Below, piece after piece: positions 26,862 to 51,573 of a DNA stretch of 64,000 nt. Under the pieces are notes generated by a model. The model saw only the letters and a program-made list of their open reading frames with translations, made no database searches and was not told the DNA's origin. Numbering within the stretch: the first letter of the stretch is position 1; every line of letters begins with the position of its first letter. The stretch is from Escherichia coli (GTDB lineage Bacteria; Pseudomonadota; Gammaproteobacteria; Enterobacterales; Enterobacteriaceae). The DNA lies in the NCBI RefSeq assembly GCF_011045215.1, contig NZ_CP049201.1; one strand, written 5' to 3'. The position numbers and the translations under genes are program-made.

Positions 26862-28205
26862 TTAACGGTAGCGTTTTATGGGGCTATTTTGATCCTGTTC
26901 AGCCAGCCAGGCGAGCTTTTCGCCAATCTTGCCTTCAAGGCCCCTGTTTGACGGGAAATAATAGCGTGTTTGTGCTATTTCCGGCGGGAAGTAAACCTCA
27001 CCGGCAGCATAAGCGTTTGCTTCATCATGAGCGTAACGATATTCCTGCCCATAGCCCATTTCCTTCATTAATTTCGTCGGCGCATTACGCAAATGAACCG
27101 GTACGTCATAATCCGGACGTTCGCGAGCATCGGCCAACGCGGCTTTAAACGCAGTGTAGACAGCGTTACTTTTTGGCGCGCAGGCCAGGTAAACAATCGC
27201 CTGAGCAATGGCGCGTTCACCTTCCGCCGGGCCAACGCGAGTAAAGCAATCCCAGGCTGCAATTGCCACCTGCATCGCTCGTGGATCAGCATTACCCACA
27301 TCTTCAGACGCAATCGCCAGACAGCGACGCGCAACATATAACGGATCGCCACCGGCAGTAATAATTCGCGCATACCAGTACAGCGCCGCATCGGGTGCGC
27401 TACCACGTACCGATTTATGCAGTGCGGAAATGAGATCGTAAAAGCGATCACCTTTGTTATCAAAGCGGGCACTACGTTCACCTGCGATTTCGGTCAGTAA
27501 TTCAGGCTTCAGGACCCGCTTACCGCTATCATCGACTTCGGCCATATCCGCCATCATTTCCAGCGTATTTAACGCCCGGCGCGCGTCGCCATTCACCAGT
27601 TCAGCAATGGCGCGTCGTGTTTCATCTGGCAGAACAATATCCTGACCACCATAGCCACGGGTTTTGTCTTCCATCGCCTGAGTTAGTACTTGCTGAATAT
27701 CCTCTGTACTCAGGGATTTCAACAGATAGACACGGGCACGGGAAAGCAGTGCCGAATTAAGCTCAAACGACGGGTTTTCAGTGGTTGCGCCAATAAAAGT
27801 GATGGTGCCGTCTTCAATATGTGGCAGAAATGCATCCTGCTGGCTTTTGTTGAAACGGTGAACTTCGTCAACAAAAAGAATAGTGCGGCGACCTGCATTG
27901 CGGTTTTGCCGGGCGCGCTCGATCGCCTCGCGAATCTCTTTCACGCCAGAGGTGACGGCAGAAATACGTTCCACATCAGCGTTCGCATAGCGGGCAATCA
28001 CTTCAGCGAGGGTTGTTTTGCCGGTACCCGGTGGCCCCCAGAGGATCATAGAATGTAAATGCCCGGCTTCGATAGCGCGCGGCAACGGCTTCCCCGCAGC
28101 CAGCAAATGTTGCTGGCCGATATACTGTGCTAAATTTTCTGGCCGCATACGCGCGGCCAGAGGTTGAAAAGTATTATCCGAAAAATCGAGCGACAGATTG
28201 CTCAC
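26862..28205 (-). CDS. rarA: Replication-associated recombination protein A (AAA+ ATPase, MgsA/YcaJ)
   Basis: 447-aa ORF with Walker [12 protein letters not shown]; conserved lolA-rarA-serS order. Confidence 0.95.
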
Positions 28206-28215
28206 TCAGGTGCCT

Positions 28216-28830
28216 CTACTTACGTTGATCATCTACCGTGACGCCTTGCGGCGGGGTGAAGGTAAATTTCGCTGCATCCACAGCCCCATTTTGCTGGGAT
28301 TTCAGTTGATAACTGCTGCGCTGATCGTCCTGCTCCACCGCGCTAAACTGATGGATTGTGCCATCACGTCCCACGTTAATGGTGAACTGCTTCAGATTGC
28401 CATTGCTGGCTTTCGGCGTCAGGACAAAGTCATCGCCATTCTGTTTGATATTGTACTGCTGCCAGTCGCTGGACTGGTTGCGGGCAATCAGCATAAACGG
28501 CGTATTACCGGTGGCATCTTTCAGCCAGGTTGCCGTAGCTTGCTCAACGAACGGGTTATAGAACCACAGTGTTTTACCGTCAGAAACCAGAATGCTTTCA
28601 TCAGGTTGTGTCATATGCCAGTTGAATAAGTTTGGACGTTTCACCCACAGATCGCCCTGACCTTCCTGCACCGCCGCGCCGCTACCATCAGTCACTTTTT
28701 GTGTGAAGCTGGCGTGGAAGCTGCTGACTTTATCCAGGCGGCTTTTCAGATCGCTTGCGGCATCAGCCCAAACGCTGCTTGCTACTAAGCTTGAGAGTAA
28801 TGCACAGGTGATGGCAATTTTTTTCATCAT
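28216..28830 (-). CDS. lolA: Outer-membrane lipoprotein carrier protein LolA
   Basis: 204-aa [49 protein letters not shown]... with signal peptide. Confidence 0.95.
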
Positions 28831-28934
28831 TATTCCTCAAATTACGTCACTCCCGATCGGGAGTTCCCTCTACTCTCTATTCCAGGCTAATAATCAGCTT
28901 GAGGAAAGAAGAAAATACTGAATTTTCAGTTGAT

Positions 28935-28978
28935 AGAGTGCCGGATGCGACGCTACCGCGCCTTATCCGGCAATGCAT
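28935..28978. repeat. REP (repetitive extragenic palindromic) element between ftsK and lolA (approximate)
   Basis: GCCGGATGCGACGCT...CGCGCCTTATCCGGC palindromic-unit consensus. Confidence 0.7.
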
Positions 28979-28981
28979 TAA

Positions 28982-31900
28982 TTAGTCAAACGGCGGTGGG
29001 GCCAGCACTTCACGATTACCGTTGTGCCCCTGTTCGCTGACAATCCCCTGCGCTTCCATCTGTTCGATAATACGCGCTGCACGGTTATAACCAATGCGGA
29101 ACTGACGCTGTACGCCAGAAATTGACGCTTTGCGTTTTTCAGTGACAAACTGCACCGCCTGATCGAACAACGGATCCAGTTCTTCAGCGCCATCGAAACC
29201 GCCCGCGCCACCTTCGCTTTCACTGTCGGAAGTGATGCCATCAACATACTGTGGGCGACCACGCGCTTTCCAGTCCTGCACCACGGCATGAACTTCCTGA
29301 TCGCGAACAAAAGCACCATGGACACGTACCGGCAACGTGGAGTTCGGCCCAGAGTAGAGCATATCCCCCATACCCAGCAGTGATTCCGCGCCAGCCTGAT
29401 CAAGAATGGTACGTGAGTCAATCTTACTGGATACGGTAAAGGCGATACGGGTCGGAATATTCGCTTTAATCAGACCAGTAATAACATCAACCGATGGACG
29501 CTGAGTTGCCAGTACGAGGTGGATACCCGCGGCACGGGCTTTTTGCGCCAGACGTGCTATCAGCTCTTCCACTTTTTTACCTACCGTCATCATCAGGTCG
29601 GCAAATTCGTCAACCAACACCACAATGTATGGTTCTTTTTTCAGCACCGGATGCTGGGCATCCATACTGTCACCCGGCTTCCAGTACGGGTCTGGAATCG
29701 GACGCATCATGCGATCGGCTTCAGCAATTTTTTCGTTATAACCCGCCAGATTACGCACACCCAGCGCAGACATCAGTTTATACCGACGCTCCATCTCGTT
29801 AACACACCAGCGCAGCGCGTTGGCGGCATCTTTCATATCAGTAACGACTTCCGTTAACAGATGCGGAATGCCTTCATAAACCGAAAGCTCCAGCATTTTC
29901 GGGTCGATCATGATGAAACGCACATCTTCTGGCTGTGCTTTATAAAGCATGCTCAGGATCATCGCGTTCACACCGACAGATTTACCGGAACCGGTAGTCC
30001 CCGCAACCAACAAGTGCGGCATTTTCGCCAGATCGGCAACCACCGGCTCACCGGCGATATCTTTACCCAGCACCACGGTTAATGGCGACGGATTATCGCG
30101 GAATTTGGCGTTATCCAAAACTTCGCGCAGATAAACGGTTTGTCGTTTTTTATTCGGTAACTCCAGACCTACATAGGGTTTGCCAGGAATAACTTCAACG
30201 ACACGCACCGCCACCGTCGAAAGTGAACGGGCAAGGTCCCGTGACAAGTTAGAAATGCGCGCCGCTTTTACGCCCGGTGCCAGGTTCAATTCAAAGCGAG
30301 TGATAACCGGCCCCGGAGAGTAATTGACGACATCGGCTTTAATACGGAAATCAGCCAGACGCGCTTCCACCAGGCGAGCCATTTGTTCAAGCGCAAAGGT
30401 ATCTACCGGCTCCACTTCGCTCGGCGGCGGTGTCAGCAAATCCAGAGAAGGCAGCGGCGTCGTCGGTTTATGCAACGGACGGCTGTCGCCATTACGCATC
30501 AACAGCGGATGAAGCAGGGTATCCTGCTGCTGCGGTGCAACCGGTTGTTGCGGCTGCTGTACAGGTTCAACAATTGGCGTAAACAACGGTTCGTGTGGAC
30601 CATCATCCAGCAACGCTTTCATTGGCGAAAATTCAAAATCATCCAGCGAGAACGGATTCGCCCCAGCCGGTTGTTCGCCGGAATAACGTTGTTGTTGAGT
30701 TTGCGCAAACTGACGAGCCAGTTCAGCCTCTGCCGCAGCATCTGCATCTTCTGCGTTTACGGGCACATCATGTTGATACTGTTCGCCATAGCGTTGCTGC
30801 TGTGTCTGGGCGAACTGACGTGCCAGTTCATCCTGCTGCATCGCATCGATTTCATCATCGTTGTACTGATCGCCAGAATCGTACTGATTGCGCTGGGCTT
30901 CACGGGCTTTTTCTTCCGCCGCACGCTGTGAGGGCAGCTTAATACCGTAAGACGCCAGTTCACGACGAGTTGGCACGCGGATACGTTTCGGTCGTGGCAA
31001 CTGCGGGCCAATCCCCTCTTTGACCTGCGGACGCGGTCCACCGCTATTTGCCAGACTGAAGACTGGCGCGGCAACGGTTGCGGCAGCCCCCGTCGCCAGT
31101 GTCGCTTTTTTCACGCCAGATGCCAGCGGAGAAACAGCGGCAGCGGTTTCTACTGGAGGTACTGCTGCAACAGAAAGTGCTTTCAGCGAAGATTTGATCG
31201 GTTCTGGTTCTTTAACCGGTTCTGGAATCGGTTGATACCAGGCCGCAAGTTGTTCACGTTCACGGGCTCGCTTCTCTTCCACTTCTTCAAAGTAGTAAAG
31301 CGGCGGACGCGCGGGTTTTGTCTCTTCTACAACGGGTTCAGGCTCCACAACAGGCTGCTGTTCAACAGGTTGCGGCTGTTGGTACAACGGCTCCTGAGCG
31401 GCTGGCTGCTGATAAGTTTGCTCAGTCTGGTATGTAGACTGTGGAGCAAAAGTGGATTGCTGCTCTTCGGCTTGCCAGGCGTTACCTGCCACCGGTTGTT
31501 CTGGCGCAGGGGCATAATACGGCTGTTGCGCAGGCTGTTCCGGCGCAGTTGCGTAATACGGTTGCTGAACAGGTTGTTCCGCCGCAGGAGCGTAGTAAGG
31601 TTGTTGCGCAGGTTGTTCAGCTGCAGGTGCATAATACGGCTGCTGCGGCTGTACTGGTTGTTGCAGCGGCTCATTATATTGCACTGCAGGCTGCGCATAT
31701 TGTGACTGCTGTGGGTAACCTTCCGGTGCAGGAGCAATAACCGGCTCTCCCGTTTGTGGACCCGGTACAGGCTGCCAGGCTACTGTAGGTTGCGAAGGTG
31801 GAACATCAACAGAGGCAACAGGCGGCGTCTGAGTCACAGGTTCAACCGGCGCAGCCCAGCTTTGTGTCGCCGTGGTAGCAGCAGCTGCCACAGCGACAGG

Positions 31901-32854
31901 TTCGGTAATTGGCGCACCGTTTAATAATGGATCGTATTCGTCATATTCTGGCTGCGTTGCACGATTGCCCGAAAATAGGACGTCGTCCGGGTCGGCAGCC
32001 ACACCGCGTGCAGTGTAGGTAATCTCTTCGTCATCATCCATCCGCTTACCGGAGAACAACGCAGCGTCTGTTTGCCGCCCCATCGGATTAATGAATTTTT
32101 CCGCCAACCGTTTACGACGCGCTAGCGCGCCGCGAAGAATACGGGCACGGCGTGATTCATGCTGTTTGCCGTGGTTTTCATCTTCATACTCTTCGTCATC
32201 TTCATATTCATCTTCATCGACCCAGGTATCATCGCGACGGGTACGATTACTAGCGAAGGTGAGAATGTTTAAAATCCAGCCGCCGAGTTTTTCAGCAATG
32301 GTCACCCATGACCAACCGGTGAACAGCGTCAGGCCCGCAGCCCAAACGCAGAGCAGCGCAATAGTTCCCCCGCTACTGTGTAGCAGTGGTTGTAGCGTAG
32401 TGCTTAGTAAGCTGCCAATGACGCCACCGGAGGCAAAATACCAGATATCGTCAGCGTTGATTGCCGCCAGACCACAGGAGGTAAGGATGAGCGCCAAAAC
32501 GCCAATGATGCGTAGCGAAACGGCAAAATAATCAATGTATTCGTCACTGGACTGATGACGCCAGGCAAACCAACAACCGCCGACAATAATGACGGGAATG
32601 GTGTAAGCCATCACGCCAAAAATAAAGAACAGCGTATCTGCCAGCCACGCACCGGGCATCCCACCTAAATTATGGATAGGTTCATGCCAGGCCGTTTGCG
32701 ACCAGCTGGGGTCCGAAGGGTTAAAGCTTAGTAAGGCAGCCATCAACCAGACGGCAAACAGGACAATAAGGATCAGCAACGCCTCCAGAAGGCGGCGGCC
32801 GCTACTTAACTTTGTCAATGTGACTTCTTTGTCTTCAGTGTATTCCTGGCTCAA
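28982..32854 (-). CDS. ftsK: DNA translocase FtsK
   Basis: 1290-aa [36 protein letters not shown]...; N-terminal membrane domain, Pro/Gln-rich linker, C-terminal motor with Walker A GTTGSGKS. Confidence 0.95.
31440..31700 (-). repeat. In-frame tandem repeats in the FtsK linker (QPYYAPA(A/P)EQP(A/V)QQ units; approximate)
   Basis: Protein shows [55 protein letters not shown]; the matching nucleotide repeats are visible around 31.5-31.7 kb. Confidence 0.7.
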
Positions 32855-32988
32855 GAAAGGCTCTCCAGGTTACAGGCTTTTCCTGCCCGATGCTAAAACG
32901 GACAACAGTACCAGGTTACCCCAGTACTGTTGCTGTATGGATTAACAGGAGTGTAATCAAAATACGCCGATTTTGCACCTGTTCCGTG

Positions 32989-33483
32989 TTAGCGCGTCTT
33001 AATAACCAGACGATTACTCTGCTTGACTTCTTCCATAACAACGTATGTCCGTGTGTCATTGACGCCAGGCAGACGCAGCAGGGTTTCCCCCAGCAACTTA
33101 CGGTAAGCTGACATATCCGGCACGCGTGTTTTCAACAGGTAGTCGAAATCACCGGATACTAAATGACACTCCTGAATTTCTTCAAGTTTTTGTACAGCGG
33201 TATTGAATTGTTCAAACACATCCGGTGCGCCACGATTCAGAGTAATCTCAACAAATACCAGAAGTGATGCATCCAGATAATGGGGGTTCAGCAGCGCCGT
33301 ATAGCCCTGAATAAACCCTTGTCTTTCCAGCCGACGCACACGCTCAAGGCACGGCGTTGGGGAAAGTCCCACACGTTTAGAAAGCTCGACGTTAGAAATA
33401 CGCCCATCCTTTTGCAACTCATTAAGAATGTTACGATCGATACGGTCGAGATCTTTGCCAGGGCGCTTCTTGCTATCTACCAT
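32989..33483 (-). CDS. lrp: Leucine-responsive regulatory protein
   Basis: ORF 32989..33537; canonical Lrp starts at the internal MVDSKKRPGKDLDRIDRNILNELQKDGRISNVELSKRVGLSPTPC (start ~33483, 164 aa). Confidence 0.95.
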   Translation of the reverse strand: MVDSKKRPGKDLDRIDRNILNELQKDGRISNVELSKRVGLSPTPCLERVRRLERQGFIQGYTALLNPHYLDASLLVFVEITLNRGAPDVFEQFNTAVQKLEEIQECHLVSGDFDYLLKTRVPDMSAYRKLLGETLLRLPGVNDTRTYVVMEEVKQSNRLVIKTR

Positions 33484-33853
33484 TATTATTGTCTCTCTGT
33501 ATTCCTTCCCTACTCCTGTCTGACCCTGAAACATCACTGTTCAGAGTCGCTACCCGTCACGATAGACCGAAATCATGAAGATTCACGGCGCGCAATGCCT
33601 GGGTCTACGGTGAGAAGACCGTTGCCTTGTGGCAGCTATCGACATCACGAATGGCGTCTGTCCACGCCATACGTAGATTTCACTAGCACGGTAAACATGG
33701 TATTTACATGCATGGTTATGCGCATATAAGAATACTGTTTTTTTTCTTCCTCGAATGTTTTCGCAAAACACCAGGGGATTGTCAAAGCAAAACATCGATT
33801 TTTAGTACAACATGCCAGATATTCATTAACAGGGGCGTTTATTCATCATTTAA

Positions 33854-34993
<1,140 letters not shown>

Positions 34994-40106: not shown

Positions 40107-40194
40107 GGTGAGGTGTCCGAGTGGCTGAAGGAGCACGCCTGGAAAGTGTGTATACGGCAACGTATCGGGGGTTCGAATCCCCCCCTCACCGCCA
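40107..40194 (+). tRNA. serW: tRNA-Ser (GGA anticodon, serW-type), 88 nt with long variable arm
   Basis: GGTGAGGTGTCCGAGTGGCTGAAGGAGCACGCCTGGAAAGTGTGTATACGGCAACGTATCGGGGGTTCGAATCCCCCCCTCACCGCCA read directly; coordinates anchored to ORF 40121, which starts at tRNA position 15. Confidence 0.9.
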
Positions 40195-45869: not shown

Positions 45870-48392
45870 TTATGCCGGTAACTCCGGGGGTAATGCTTCT
45901 TCCAGCCGGTTAACCATATTGCCGAGATGGGATGCATCATATTCCATGACGGGGCGTTGCCTGATGATACTGACCACCAGTGGTTTGATTAACATATTGG
46001 TCGCGGCCCGTTGTTGTATACCGGCGGCGAAAATGATCTCCAGAGCATTCTGATCGATAACACGGGCCAGATTCGCGTTCAGATTTTCTGTTTCATGTCC
46101 GGTCAGCAGGAAACTGCCGGCAAGCCATGTCACCTGTTCCTGAATCATTGCCAGAATTTTGACGCGATCTTCTTCAACCAGCGCTCCGGCAATTTTTCCT
46201 GATACAGCGGAGGCAATCATTCCCCCCAGAACACCGCCAACCACACGCCCTGTCAGTGCACCAAATGGTCCCAGTGGACTGAACAGTATCCCGCCCGCCA
46301 CTGACCCGACAGCTCCACCTGCCACACCGGAAGATGCCACGGCAAGATTCCTGATGAACTGCGTACCGGAGATCCGTCCCCGCAACATTTTGATCATGTC
46401 AGGGCCGGTTGTGACAGCTACCAGTGCCAGAGATGTCACCAGCGTACCCTTCATCACTTTGTTCAGGGCACTGATATTTCCTGCACCGGTCCCCTTCTGA
46501 AGAGCCAGTCGGACAGTCGGGCTGGCAGTCGAAAAATCAATGTGCTTCAGCATACCCTGAACAACACTGAGCCGGTGGAGTTGCTGGGTTGTGACGTAGA
46601 CAGCCAGTGTGCGGGTGAAGGTTTTTCCTGCCTGGACAGCAGCTGTCTGCAGAGCAGCATCGCGATCGCCGGTGCTGAGCCAGAAGACCGATGCCGTCAG
46701 GGCAAAACTGATCCCTCCGGCCGCCAGACTGACAACCGAACCCTCGGCAATATCATAAGTGACCGATTCGATGGTCCCGAACCGGGTGATATTACGGGCC
46801 TGAGTATAAGTCAGATGTCCCCGACGAATCAGCCGGGACGCTTCTGCGGGATCGATTACACCGGGTACTTTACCTTCGCGGATCTTATTCCTCATGGTTT
46901 CAACAGCGCCGGCATACTGATCACGGGGGACTTCCAGTTGCATGGGGCCATTATTTCCCATGTAACGATACTGTCCGTTTTGTCCGTCGAATGCCGCACC
47001 GACGCTACGGGCTGCAGTTGAACAATATTTCGTCTGGATTTCTGTTCCGCTGACCAGTCTGTCTGCTCCATTTCTGGCATTATTATCACCGAGGATCCGT
47101 GCGTTTTTCAGACGGATTCTGTCGACAATATGGTTTCCCCGTTCAGCGGCAAACCCATGTCCCTGCCCTCCGGAAGCAAACATTTTCTCATTTGTACTCC
47201 AGGTTTCCGGCAGTTTCATGAGAATCAGACCATTCGCCGTTGCATCGGAAATAAAACTGTTGTAGGGGCGTTCATAAATTTCCTGACACAGTGTTTCTGT
47301 TTCGCGACAAAGAGAGGAGCAGTACCATTCCGGATCCGGCTTATGATTTTCCGGGGCATGATGTACTTCTGTCAGCCCGCAGGAGGCACAGACACGAAGC
47401 TCATCCACGTGATGGAATGATACAAAACGGCGACCTTCTGAAAAGGGATACCAGTCACCGCCGTCCAGGCAACGATCGAGAAAATCGTCATTCGCTTCCG
47501 GTGATAAATTCAGGCGGTTCCGGAAGAGTGTTTTCAGTTCATCAGGTGTGAATGACAGGTTCTCTTTCAACTGTTCGTTAAACCCTGCCATGTTTCTTTC
47601 ATACCAGGCATTGTTCAGTAACCAGTTTCCGTCTGCCAGTTCAAATTCCCTCAGCTCTCCCCGGGAAATCCGTTGAGAAATAAGCGTCAGCCAGATGCGC
47701 TCCGTCAGTGAGTCAGGAAGGCTGTAATCGTTTTGCAAACTGGTCAGCCACGATTTACTGTTGAGCACCGGTTGTTCTTCCAGTGTCTGGCTGATGGCAC
47801 AGGTCAGTTTTTTCAGCGCCTGGATTTGGCTGGCCGCCCATAGCAGCGTCACTAATGCAGCCAGCCAGTACAACAACCCGCCCCACCACATCAGTGACGG
47901 TGAAATATCGTACTGTAACGCGATCAATGGTGCGCATGCAGAACAAGCCATAAGGAAAAAGGCAGTATAAAAACAGCAGTAATATCCGTTAATTTCCTTG
48001 CTGATATCTTCTGGTGTGATCCCGTTCTGCTGAATGTTTTTGATCTGCAGGGGAACAGCCAGCAGACCACCGGCGAGAGCGGTGGTCAGAATAAATTTCA
48101 CGGAGTCAAAGGTGTGAGACTCCAGCGCAATATGTTTACCATCAAGTCCCCACATGAAGCTGATGATCATTCCGGCAATCGTCAGAAATACGCCTGCCAG
48201 CCAGCGAATATGGAACAACCGGGTTATGCGTTCGGTGATATAGCCAGCCAGTAAGGCCGGGCCGAACAGACACAGCAATATGAGCCCTGCCAGCGCAGAA
48301 GCCGTGCTGATTAATGCTCTGAACAAAAGGCGAAGAATGGCAAATCCTGCGATCAGCAGGATCAGCGCGCCGACTATCTGTAACATAGTCAC
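45870..48392 (-). CDS. yeeR: YeeR-like large inner membrane protein
   Basis: 840-aa ORF with multiple TM segments at both ends; located between the Ag43 gene and the DUF932/antirestriction genes as in CP4-44-type elements. Confidence 0.7.
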   Translation of the reverse strand: MTMLQIVGALILLIAGFAILRLLFRALISTASALAGLILLCLFGPALLAGYITERITRLFHIRWLAGVFLTIAGMIISFMWGLDGKHIALESHTFDSVKFILTTALAGGLLAVPLQIKNIQQNGITPEDISKEINGYYCCFYTAFFLMACSACAPLIALQYDISPSLMWWGGLLYWLAALVTLLWAASQIQALKKLTCAISQTLEEQPVLNSKSWLTSLQNDYSLPDSLTERIWLTLISQRISRGELREFELADGNWLLNNAWYERNMAGFNEQLKENLSFTPDELKTLFRNRLNLSPEANDDFLDRCLDGGDWYPFSEGRRFVSFHHVDELRVCASCGLTEVHHAPENHKPDPEWYCSSLCRETETLCQEIYERPYNSFISDATANGLILMKLPETWSTNEKMFASGGQGHGFAAERGNHIVDRIRLKNARILGDNNARNGADRLVSGTEIQTKYCSTAARSVGAAFDGQNGQYRYMGNNGPMQLEVPRDQYAGAVETMRNKIREGKVPGVIDPAEASRLIRRGHLTYTQARNITRFGTIESVTYDIAEGSVVSLAAGGISFALTASVFWLSTGDRDAALQTAAVQAGKTFTRTLAVYVTTQQLHRLSVVQGMLKHIDFSTASPTVRLALQKGTGAGNISALNKVMKGTLVTSLALVAVTTGPDMIKMLRGRISGTQFIRNLAVASSGVAGGAVGSVAGGILFSPLGPFGALTGRVVGGVLGGMIASAVSGKIAGALVEEDRVKILAMIQEQVTWLAGSFLLTGHETENLNANLARVIDQNALEIIFAAGIQQRAATNMLIKPLVVSIIRQRPVMEYDASHLGNMVNRLEEALPPELPA

Positions 48393-48506: not shown

Positions 48507-51356
48507 TCAGAAGGTCACATTCAGCGTGGCCTGACCGTTATAGCCTTCGGCGCTGTTGCCGCTGACACTGTGGGCATAACCGGCCTGAACGCCCAGGGTG
48601 ATATTTTCCCGGACACGGGCTTCCAGTCCGGCCTGCAGGTCCAGTGACGTGCCATTCCGGGACGGTGAAAACGTCATGTTACTGCCGGCGGCGGCTGTAC
48701 CCATGCTCATGTCACCCCGGGAGCTGAAAGTGCGGATAACAGAAGGCTGTACCCACCAGTTCACCGGCAGTTCACTCACACGGTGTTTTGCACTGTCGCG
48801 CAGAGTGTCACGGGATGAGGTGCCTTCGCCAAAAGTCATATCGTTGTGGCTGCCCAGACGGAAGCCGGCACGCACATGTTGTGCACTGCCATGCCCGAAC
48901 TTCACATAACCGGCGTTATCCTGGCCGTCATCCAGGGAGAGCCCCTGCCAGGTGTACTGCAGTTGTGGCTCCAGCATCAGGTTGTCAGTGATACTGAAGG
49001 GCAGACCGGTTTCCAGTGAGCCCAGCCAGCCCCAGCCCCGGGCGCGGAAGTCGTTATTGTCCGATGACGCTTTCATGCTGTGGCGGGTTCCCTGGGCCAC
49101 AATGTCAGCCCACAGGCCGGAGGACGTGTGTACCAGATTCAGGTATCCGCCCAGGCTGCCGGCATCATCCCGGACCGTGCCGGCACGGGAGCCGTCATCA
49201 TCCTTAACATCAACGGAAGAATGGCCAGCAGCACCATACACTCCTGTCGTCAGTGACATACCGGCAACCTCTGTTCTCAGCAGGTCACCCTCCAGACGGA
49301 CGAGGCCATAGCTGCCGCTGCTTTCCGGCGTGGCCCCACGGGCAATACCACCGTTGTTATCGTGCCCGAGATGACCGCCCTGAATGCTGAGACGGACGCT
49401 GTTATTTTCACCGCTTACACCGGTCTGATGGCTGCGGGAACCTGCCAGAATCCGGTCATAGTCCATTGCCTGTGTCAGCATGGAGGCATACAGGGGGACT
49501 TCAGCACGATAAGCATTTTCACTGCGCAGGTACCAGTCTTCATCGCTGTCACGGTTCAGGGTGTAGTTAAAGGCGCCGGCCTGAAGCGGGCGACTCAGGG
49601 CAAACGCACCTTCTTCTGTGGTAGCACCATTCTGTGCATCCACAACCCGGATACCCTGTCCGGAGGTTGCCACCCCGAGGTTACTGTTTCCGACATTTGT
49701 AAACGCAAGCCAGGTTTTGCCGGTTGCCTGACCACCATTAATCACCAGCTGGTCAGAGGCATTACTGCCATCAAGGCTGACACGCATATTGATGGTGCCG
49801 CCCTGGCCGGTGAGGTTCGTGGTGGTTAGTTTATGGAACGTTACCGGGGAGTTACTTTTTGCAACAGCACGGCTCAGCGCGGCATCCGGTGTCGTCTGAT
49901 TATCAAAGTGAATCTCTCCTGCGTTAATAATATCGCCGGTACTGACCACATCACCATTCAGTACCATACTGGCGCCTTTACTGAGCTGTGTTCTGCCACT
50001 CAGACTTCCCCCGGCAGCCAGCGTCAGTGTTCCACGATGTCCGACAGTGGTGTTGCTGGCCAGTCCTCCGGCATTAACCGTAAAGCTGCCGCCATTTTCC
50101 AGCAGCAGGCCGCTGGCCTGACCGGATATGCCATCAATACTGAACTTACCGCTGGCATTGGTCCCCTCAACAGTGGCACCACTGTCTGCAATCAGGGCAC
50201 CACCGGATGTCATGGTGACATCTGTTGCCTTACCACCGGCAGACACTGCCAGGGTACCGCCGTCATCCACCAGTGTTTTCCAGGCTGAATGGCCCTCCAG
50301 TACATCCAGGCGACCGCCGGACTCCAGAACAACGCCGTCAGCCTTACCGTTTTCCACTGTGAAATTCCCCAGGCGGTTTGTGCCGGTGACAGTTGCAGCA
50401 GTACTGGTAACCAGTGCACCGCCCGTGTTCTGGGTGACTGCAGTGGCTTCCCCGCCGGCATGTACCCTCAGTTCACCGTTCTGATTTATGGTGGTGTTAC
50501 CGGCAGCGCCACCGGCCTTAACAACCTGCCAGCCCCCCTCGTTAATTACCGTGTTCAGCGCCAGTCCGTCCTTGTGCACATACTGGTAACCGCCATTCAG
50601 TGTGGTATTCAGGGCCCTTCCGTGTACCGACTGGTCACCACCTGCGTAAATGAGAGTGTCACGGGCTATCCCGGAAGATAAGATAATCTGCCGTCCATTT
50701 TTGTTGATGGTGGTGGATTCTGCTGTTCCCTGGACCTTCTGACCCGTGTACGAGTTGTCAGAATCCGGGCCGCCTTCTGCGCCGGTGTTGATGATGGTTC
50801 CTGTTGCCAGCCCGCCACTTTTAACGCTCTGGTAACCGTCGCGGTTGATAATTGTACCGGTGGCAACCCCGCCCTCATGAACCCACTGCTCGCCTCTGTT
50901 ATTCAGCGTGGTGTTCACCGCCAGCCCGTTCAGGCTCTGTCCCCCGCCGTCACGAATAACCGTATCACTGGCTGTTCCCCCCTCCAGCACGACCTGACGA
51001 CCATTTGTGGTGACAGTGGTGTTTCCGGCTATCCCGCCATTCTGTATCCATTGCCCACCGGTGTTTTCTTCACTGTCCGGCCCCAGTTCCAGCCCGGTAC
51101 TGATGGTCATTCCGTTGGCCGTACCGAGGACAATCTGGTTGTCATGATTTGTCAGTGTTCCGCCGCTCATGGTTTCTCCCGCCTGTACAACCGTGTCAGC
51201 AGCCAGTGCCGGGACTGACGTGACAGCAGCAAGAGACAGCGCAACCGCCACACCGGTGCGTTTTCCCCGTGAGCGGGCCAGTTCGGAGGCCACCACCAGG
51301 GTGCCCGTAATGTGATTCCATACCAGCCTGTAGCTGGTGTTCAGATGTCGTTTCAT
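48507..51356 (-). CDS. flu: Antigen 43-type self-associating autotransporter adhesin
   Basis: ORF 48507..51431; real start at the internal MKRHLNTSYRLVWNHITGTLVVASELARSRGKR (extended autotransporter signal peptide); passenger repeats; C-terminal beta-barrel ending ...GYNGQATLNVTF. Confidence 0.9.
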   Translation of the reverse strand: MKRHLNTSYRLVWNHITGTLVVASELARSRGKRTGVAVALSLAAVTSVPALAADTVVQAGETMSGGTLTNHDNQIVLGTANGMTISTGLELGPDSEENTGGQWIQNGGIAGNTTVTTNGRQVVLEGGTASDTVIRDGGGQSLNGLAVNTTLNNRGEQWVHEGGVATGTIINRDGYQSVKSGGLATGTIINTGAEGGPDSDNSYTGQKVQGTAESTTINKNGRQIILSSGIARDTLIYAGGDQSVHGRALNTTLNGGYQYVHKDGLALNTVINEGGWQVVKAGGAAGNTTINQNGELRVHAGGEATAVTQNTGGALVTSTAATVTGTNRLGNFTVENGKADGVVLESGGRLDVLEGHSAWKTLVDDGGTLAVSAGGKATDVTMTSGGALIADSGATVEGTNASGKFSIDGISGQASGLLLENGGSFTVNAGGLASNTTVGHRGTLTLAAGGSLSGRTQLSKGASMVLNGDVVSTGDIINAGEIHFDNQTTPDAALSRAVAKSNSPVTFHKLTTTNLTGQGGTINMRVSLDGSNASDQLVINGGQATGKTWLAFTNVGNSNLGVATSGQGIRVVDAQNGATTEEGAFALSRPLQAGAFNYTLNRDSDEDWYLRSENAYRAEVPLYASMLTQAMDYDRILAGSRSHQTGVSGENNSVRLSIQGGHLGHDNNGGIARGATPESSGSYGLVRLEGDLLRTEVAGMSLTTGVYGAAGHSSVDVKDDDGSRAGTVRDDAGSLGGYLNLVHTSSGLWADIVAQGTRHSMKASSDNNDFRARGWGWLGSLETGLPFSITDNLMLEPQLQYTWQGLSLDDGQDNAGYVKFGHGSAQHVRAGFRLGSHNDMTFGEGTSSRDTLRDSAKHRVSELPVNWWVQPSVIRTFSSRGDMSMGTAAAGSNMTFSPSRNGTSLDLQAGLEARVRENITLGVQAGYAHSVSGNSAEGYNGQATLNVTF

Positions 51357-51573
51357 CAGCTTTTCCTTACAGAGGGTGAATAAAAAAGCCGGTACCCACA
51401 AATGTGGATACCGGCAGGTACAAAACAGCATGGTCAGATAAAGTGGTTTTTCCCGGACATAAATGCTTCCCCTCTCTCATCCGCCAGAGAAGTATCAGTC
51501 CGTTGTGTGCAATTCCGTTCTGCATGATGAAGAGATTCAGCTGCCTTTTCGCAGGCCATTAACCACTACAAAC

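Follow-up and report, generated by a model that had tools for sequence, protein, structure and literature searches.

The ftsK gene in the 64,000-nucleotide stretch of Escherichia coli DNA analysed here (the window) is, we conclude with considerable confidence, an ordinary ftsK whose coding sequence contains two in-frame 39-bp minisatellites in the disordered Pro/Gln linker of the protein. The window has four units of the first tract and one of the second (A4/B1), compared with two and six in K-12 (A2/B6). A sequence-only reading of this DNA had given the protein as 1290 aa against about 1329 aa in K-12, and had attributed the gap, as the likeliest cause, to the number of PQ-rich linker repeats. 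Both figures are right (the ORF in the window; b0890 in K-12) and so is the attribution, as the whole difference is one of copy number of 13-aa (39-bp) units.

The gene, the domains of its product and its two neighbours lie in the window as follows.

28982..32854, (-) strand: ftsK coding sequence, 1290 aa, TTG start, stop codon included
32282..32797, (-) strand: FtsK_4TM membrane domain, intact (aa 20-191, PF13491, E = 4.9e-42)
30455..32281, (-) strand: linker from membrane domain to motor (aa 192-800, from the Pfam domain boundaries)
29489..30454, (-) strand: motor, FtsK_alpha plus FtsK_SpoIIIE, intact (Pfam)
29000..29182, (-) strand: FtsK_gamma, the KOPS-recognising and XerD-activating domain, intact (aa 1225-1285, PF09397)
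32989..33483, (-) strand: lrp, upstream neighbour, gene order as in K-12
28216..28827, (-) strand: lolA, downstream neighbour, gene order as in K-12

This ORF is the E. coli FtsK orthologue, with the four-transmembrane domain, the alpha/beta motor, the gamma domain and the orthologous position all present. Its exact sequence has the accessions WP_164475866.1 / QIF14402.1 and is named there "DNA translocase FtsK [Escherichia coli]". Within the motor, Pfam places FtsK_alpha (PF17854) at aa 801-901 and the beta domain with its P-loop, FtsK_SpoIIIE (PF01580), at aa 909-1122. The protein has the GTTGSGKS motif. Its residues 779-1290 are matched with E = 0 by PDB 2IUS, a crystallised construct of the E. 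coli motor, and the gamma domain is also matched by PDB 2J5P and 5DCF. From the alpha domain to the C-terminus the window and K-12 proteins are identical. The K-12 MG1655 gene (b0890, NC_000913) encodes 1329 aa from the same TTG start, with identical first codons; this length, together with a Pro/Gln-rich linker of ~650 aa, is also given for E. coli FtsK in the literature (PMC2800217). The order lrp-ftsK-lolA-rarA is conserved, and the window is collinear with K-12 967669-925877.

Up to the second repeat tract the linker is 12.8% Pro and 12.3% Gln, and it holds other repetitive sequence besides the two polymorphic tracts. An acidic short tandem repeat (period 6/9/18) lies just past the membrane domain, at window positions 32177-32218, and is identical in K-12. 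A third linker repeat is present as two dispersed copies, at 30683-30724 and 30788-30829 on the (-) strand (aa 676-689 and 711-724), which share 34 of 42 bases and are equal in copy number to K-12. Two further ORFs, 31232-31705 (+) and 31327-31737 (-), fall wholly within ftsK and were set aside as by-products of repetitive GC-rich codons.

Alignment of the window and K-12 proteins, which had been set beforehand as the test of whether the length difference lies inside the linker or outside it, places it inside. The two proteins are collinear end to end and differ by four substitutions (window to K-12: T6I, S354A, L560P and T570A, all outside the repeats) and by two in-frame indels, both whole multiples of 13 aa and both situated after the 4TM domain (aa 20-191) and before the alpha domain (aa 801-901). 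At tract A the window has four units and K-12 two, a gain of 26 aa; at tract B it has one unit and K-12 six, a loss of 65 aa. The net change is -39 aa, and the linker, taken from aa 192 through tract B, is 586 aa long in the window and 625 aa in K-12. The two tracts are located as follows.

31493..31648, (-) strand: tract A, four 39-bp / 13-aa units (aa 403-454; Tandem Repeats Finder, TRF, and unit-by-unit listing)
30524..30562, (-) strand: tract B, a single 39-bp / 13-aa unit (aa 765-777), where K-12 has six

The earlier reading had pointed to 31440-31700 as the polymorphic stretch. A repeat that is polymorphic relative to K-12 does lie there, namely tract A, but the window has more units of it than K-12, a difference of the opposite sign. 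The shortfall was thus traced to the wrong tract: the deficit is in tract B, at 30524-30562, some ~1 kb away. TRF reports tract A (31494-31647, period 39, 3.9 copies, score 175-206) but is blind to tract B in the window, since one unit is left there. Tract B stops two residues short of where the 2IUS construct begins. Relative to K-12, 65 low-complexity residues are gone directly before the motor and 26 residues have been added mid-linker.

The units of tract A are 74-82% identical to one another. Its variation was surveyed in 60 rows taken at even ranking steps from 5,426 complete RefSeq E. coli genomes, in which spans of 756, 717 and 678 bp, corresponding to four, three and two units, occurred in 22, 19 and 18 rows. 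The four-unit state of the window is therefore a common one, found in about a third of the sample. The two-unit tract of K-12 consists of u1+u4, and in the three-unit allele the third unit is a chimera of u3 and u4. Tract A is an old, degenerate array that has a few stable states. Common ancestry of tracts A and B was considered, as both are built of 39-bp units, and was not pursued, as no convincing register between the units was found by eye.

Tract B is much more variable than tract A, ranging from one to about eight units between strains; arrays of 3-7 units joined head to tail were seen in strains other than the window's. Its lengths were taken from the same 60-row systematic sample and from further searches of the 5,426 complete genomes, and exceed that of the window by 78, 117, 132, 156, 171, 195, 210, 234 or 273 bp. 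Within the 60-row sample, six units and seven units were each found 21 times and eight units three times; one row had an odd length, and 14 gave split matches. The split matches might have indicated a different architecture, but the two of the 14 that were inspected are ordinary alleles: 14EC033 has seven units, including a variant unit, and SCU-204 has five on a divergent haplotype. Lengths off the 39-bp multiple are due to a 15-bp partial unit, seen in CX12 and A34. None of the 20 alleles examined at the level of single units breaks the frame, and they differ by steps of 39 bp except for this one partial unit. Tracts A and B are thus in-frame coding VNTRs, with head-to-tail units, strain-variable copy number and a conserved frame.

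Genomes with a single tract B unit were counted with a 67-bp query made of flank, unit and flank; longer queries of 639 bp and 159 bp did not discriminate, as the flanking pieces were joined. Exactly 12 of the 5,426 genomes (0.2%) match this query at 100% coverage, the next match reaching only 84%. They come from giant panda, swine, chicken, food, wastewater and human sources in several countries, and their ftsK genes are 19-29 substitutions from that of the window. Three are A4/B1 (1290 aa) and nine A3/B1 (1277 aa). The surviving unit is identical to that of the window in ten of them, but in the other two it ends in CCGCAG rather than CAGCAG, and collapse to one unit therefore appears to be recurrent. 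No ftsK identical to that of the window was found among the 5,426 complete genomes, the best match being 99.7%. The haplotypes nearest to it, CX12 (11 differences), A34 (12) and STEC388 (15), have four to about six tract B units. EC2001, which is A4/B1 like the window, has five differences upstream of tract B and 14 downstream, a pattern that suggests a recombination breakpoint at or near the tract.

Tract B is the MLVA locus CVN001. This is reportedly a 39-bp VNTR of the generic E. coli MLVA scheme of Lindstedt et al. 2007 (GECM-7/GECM-10). The published primers are AACCGGCTGGGGCGAATCC and GGCGGCGGTGTCAGCAAATC, the repeat is 39 bp and the number of copies is calculated as (product - 250)/39 (PMC8143711). 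Each of the two has an exact match in the window, one at 30654-30672 (-) and the other at 30423-30442 (+), on either side of tract B, and together they predict the following product.

30423..30672, no strand: CVN001 in-silico amplicon, 250 bp, equal to allele 0

The unit length agrees, and the 250-bp offset of the published formula is the amplicon of the window itself. The K-12 amplicon is 445 bp, which is allele 5. In a survey of Swedish ESBL-producing E. coli the CVN001 alleles were 4 (1%), 5 (40%), 6 (40%), 7 (13%) and 8 (5%) (PMC5217547), a spread that agrees with our tract B sample after an offset of one unit; against these published alleles of 4-8, the window has no extra units, and its source strain would type as an unusual CVN001 allele 0. 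None of the papers in the literature searched names both CVN001 and ftsK, and the link is made here by mapping the primers. The 15-bp partial unit in tract B of CX12 and A34 is TATCAGCAGCCGCAG (YQQPQ); the CVN001 products of these strains come to 3.38 and 5.38 units, which are not whole numbers, and rounding would be expected in MLVA. In SCU-204, whose ftsK haplotype differs from the window by 68 substitutions and is the most divergent of those examined, the site of the CVN001 reverse primer (ftsK nt 2530-2549) contains a single mismatch.

The suggestion that the repeat would make a useful strain marker is borne out for tract B, which is an established typing locus, but the total length of FtsK is a poor readout of it. 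Precisely 1329 aa result from at least three combinations of the tracts: A2/B6 in K-12, A4/B4 in STEC388 and A3/B5 in SCU-204. Total length is a misleading marker because the two tracts vary independently.

Two ways in which the difference from K-12 might be an artefact have to be weighed. The first is that it reflects annotation, through use of another start codon, or lies outside the linker. An ORF listing takes the first possible start after a stop, and the real start may differ; however, the window and K-12 share the TTG and the only indels between them are the two repeat tracts within the linker, which leaves this explanation with next to no probability. The other is that the single unit of tract B is an assembly collapse, the assembler having jumped between near-identical first and last units. 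In related alleles these share 36 identical bases, a stretch that exceeds a k=31 word; records of the exact protein are limited to one 5.41-Mb chromosome and one Logan contig, probably of the same isolate; and the single-unit allele is rare (12/5,426) and outside the 4-8 range of the one published survey. Against this, the separate Logan assembly runs unbroken through the locus, in a 23.8 kb contig from run SRR11014969 that is 100% identical to window positions 27982-33854 (5,873 bp, both tracts included), the allele is in frame, and a tract B of one unit also occurs in 12 other complete genomes of unrelated origin. Since a second assembly and 12 independent genomes agree, collapse is highly unlikely, and the earlier description of this repeat as a hotspot for assembly errors finds no support at this locus.

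With a real allele much the better reading, its origin is likely to be replication slippage or unequal recombination between units. One unit would pair with another in register, either during replication or in unequal homologous recombination, and the copy number would shift. The first and last tract B units of A34 and STEC388 share 36 consecutive identical bases, and a single-step deletion between the first and last units of alleles like these would leave a unit identical to that of the window. In tract A, the u3/u4 chimera and the u1+u4 composition of K-12 read as the signature of in-register deletion. Every variant keeps the frame, and in none is the membrane domain or the alpha/beta/gamma motor affected. 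For comparison, repeat contractions in E. coli tolA were measured at 6.9e-5 and were RecA dependent (PMC3477136).

The outcome expected of these changes would be a tether about 6% shorter than that of K-12, with little or no functional effect. The change in linker length is probably near neutral, although the loss of 65 aa beside the motor could have a small effect. A different reading is that linker length is under selection: the tract B count would tune how far the motor can reach at the septum, or when it acts there, and the recurrence of one-unit alleles would be adaptive. Tract B abuts the motor domain, and at least three ftsK backgrounds carry single-unit alleles, in which the unit that survives is of two kinds. 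The linker has been reported to be necessary for normal FtsK activity, its size varying between bacteria (PMC3870252), and a passage of PMC6137255 cites Bigot 2004 for this need; in tolA, moreover, the number of linker repeats can modulate stress tolerance. Recurrence is nevertheless expected at a VNTR through mutation alone, the frequency of the single-unit allele is 0.2%, and no shared ecology links the 12 carriers, whose hosts and countries are unrelated. In the only direct test that was found, an 84-bp ftsK repeat indel was swapped by allelic exchange in Salmonella Enteritidis and had no effect in the single assay used (PMC6137255). We consider selection on linker length quite improbable, and the more specific proposal, that the tract B count is a heritable, reversible adjuster of the length of the septum-motor tether, very doubtful. 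If that proposal were true, the recurrent one-unit extreme would mark lineages favouring a short tether.

The variation has close parallels. The K-12 locus shares the gene, the neighbours (lrp, lolA, rarA) and the start codon, and differs from the window by two fewer units in tract A and five more in tract B. In Salmonella the corresponding ftsK tract is the VNTR and MLVA marker SENTR2 (39 bp; PMC2430564), also called STTR7, which like E. coli tract B is a 39-bp repeat in the PQ linker used for typing; it belongs to another species, however, and has more units (about 9). An in-frame deletion of 195 bp in the ftsK PQ repeats relative to LT2 has been reported in Salmonella Typhimurium (PMC8627665), the same size as the difference between the window and K-12 at tract B. 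The tolA repeat of E. coli (Zhou, Michiels & Aertsen 2012) is likewise in frame and varies in copy number between isolates; the protein is associated with the envelope and with division, and the repeat falls in a domain of it that is linker-like. The gene and the unit are different, and for tolA a copy-number-dependent phenotype has been shown.

Outside ftsK, two departures from K-12 were seen. Collinearity ends at serW, a tRNA-Ser(GGA) gene at 40107-40194 (+), and window positions 40203-64000, about 24 kb at the serW site, have no K-12 counterpart. This region encodes DUF4942, DUF5983 and DUF932 (YafZ-like) proteins, an EAL-domain protein, two IS3-family transposases and an IS21 IstB, together with an 840-aa ORF without a Pfam match (45870-48392, (-) strand) and a 974-aa autotransporter of AIDA/Ag43 type (48507-51431, (-) strand). 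It resembles a CP4-type genomic island that has integrated at serW. The best 24-kb match of the window among complete RefSeq E. coli genomes is 98.2%, a figure probably lowered by the island beyond serW. The other departure is at window positions 17384-17425, where ~1.5 kb of K-12 (948772-950284, the greater part of ycaN and ycaK) is absent and only about 40 bp lie between the flanking K-12 alignments.

The ftsK repeat polymorphism is real but ordinary. It was known beforehand, with tract B in use for typing, and its biological importance is small. What the single-unit allele shows is that E. coli tolerates having almost none of the repeat block beside the motor domain of FtsK.
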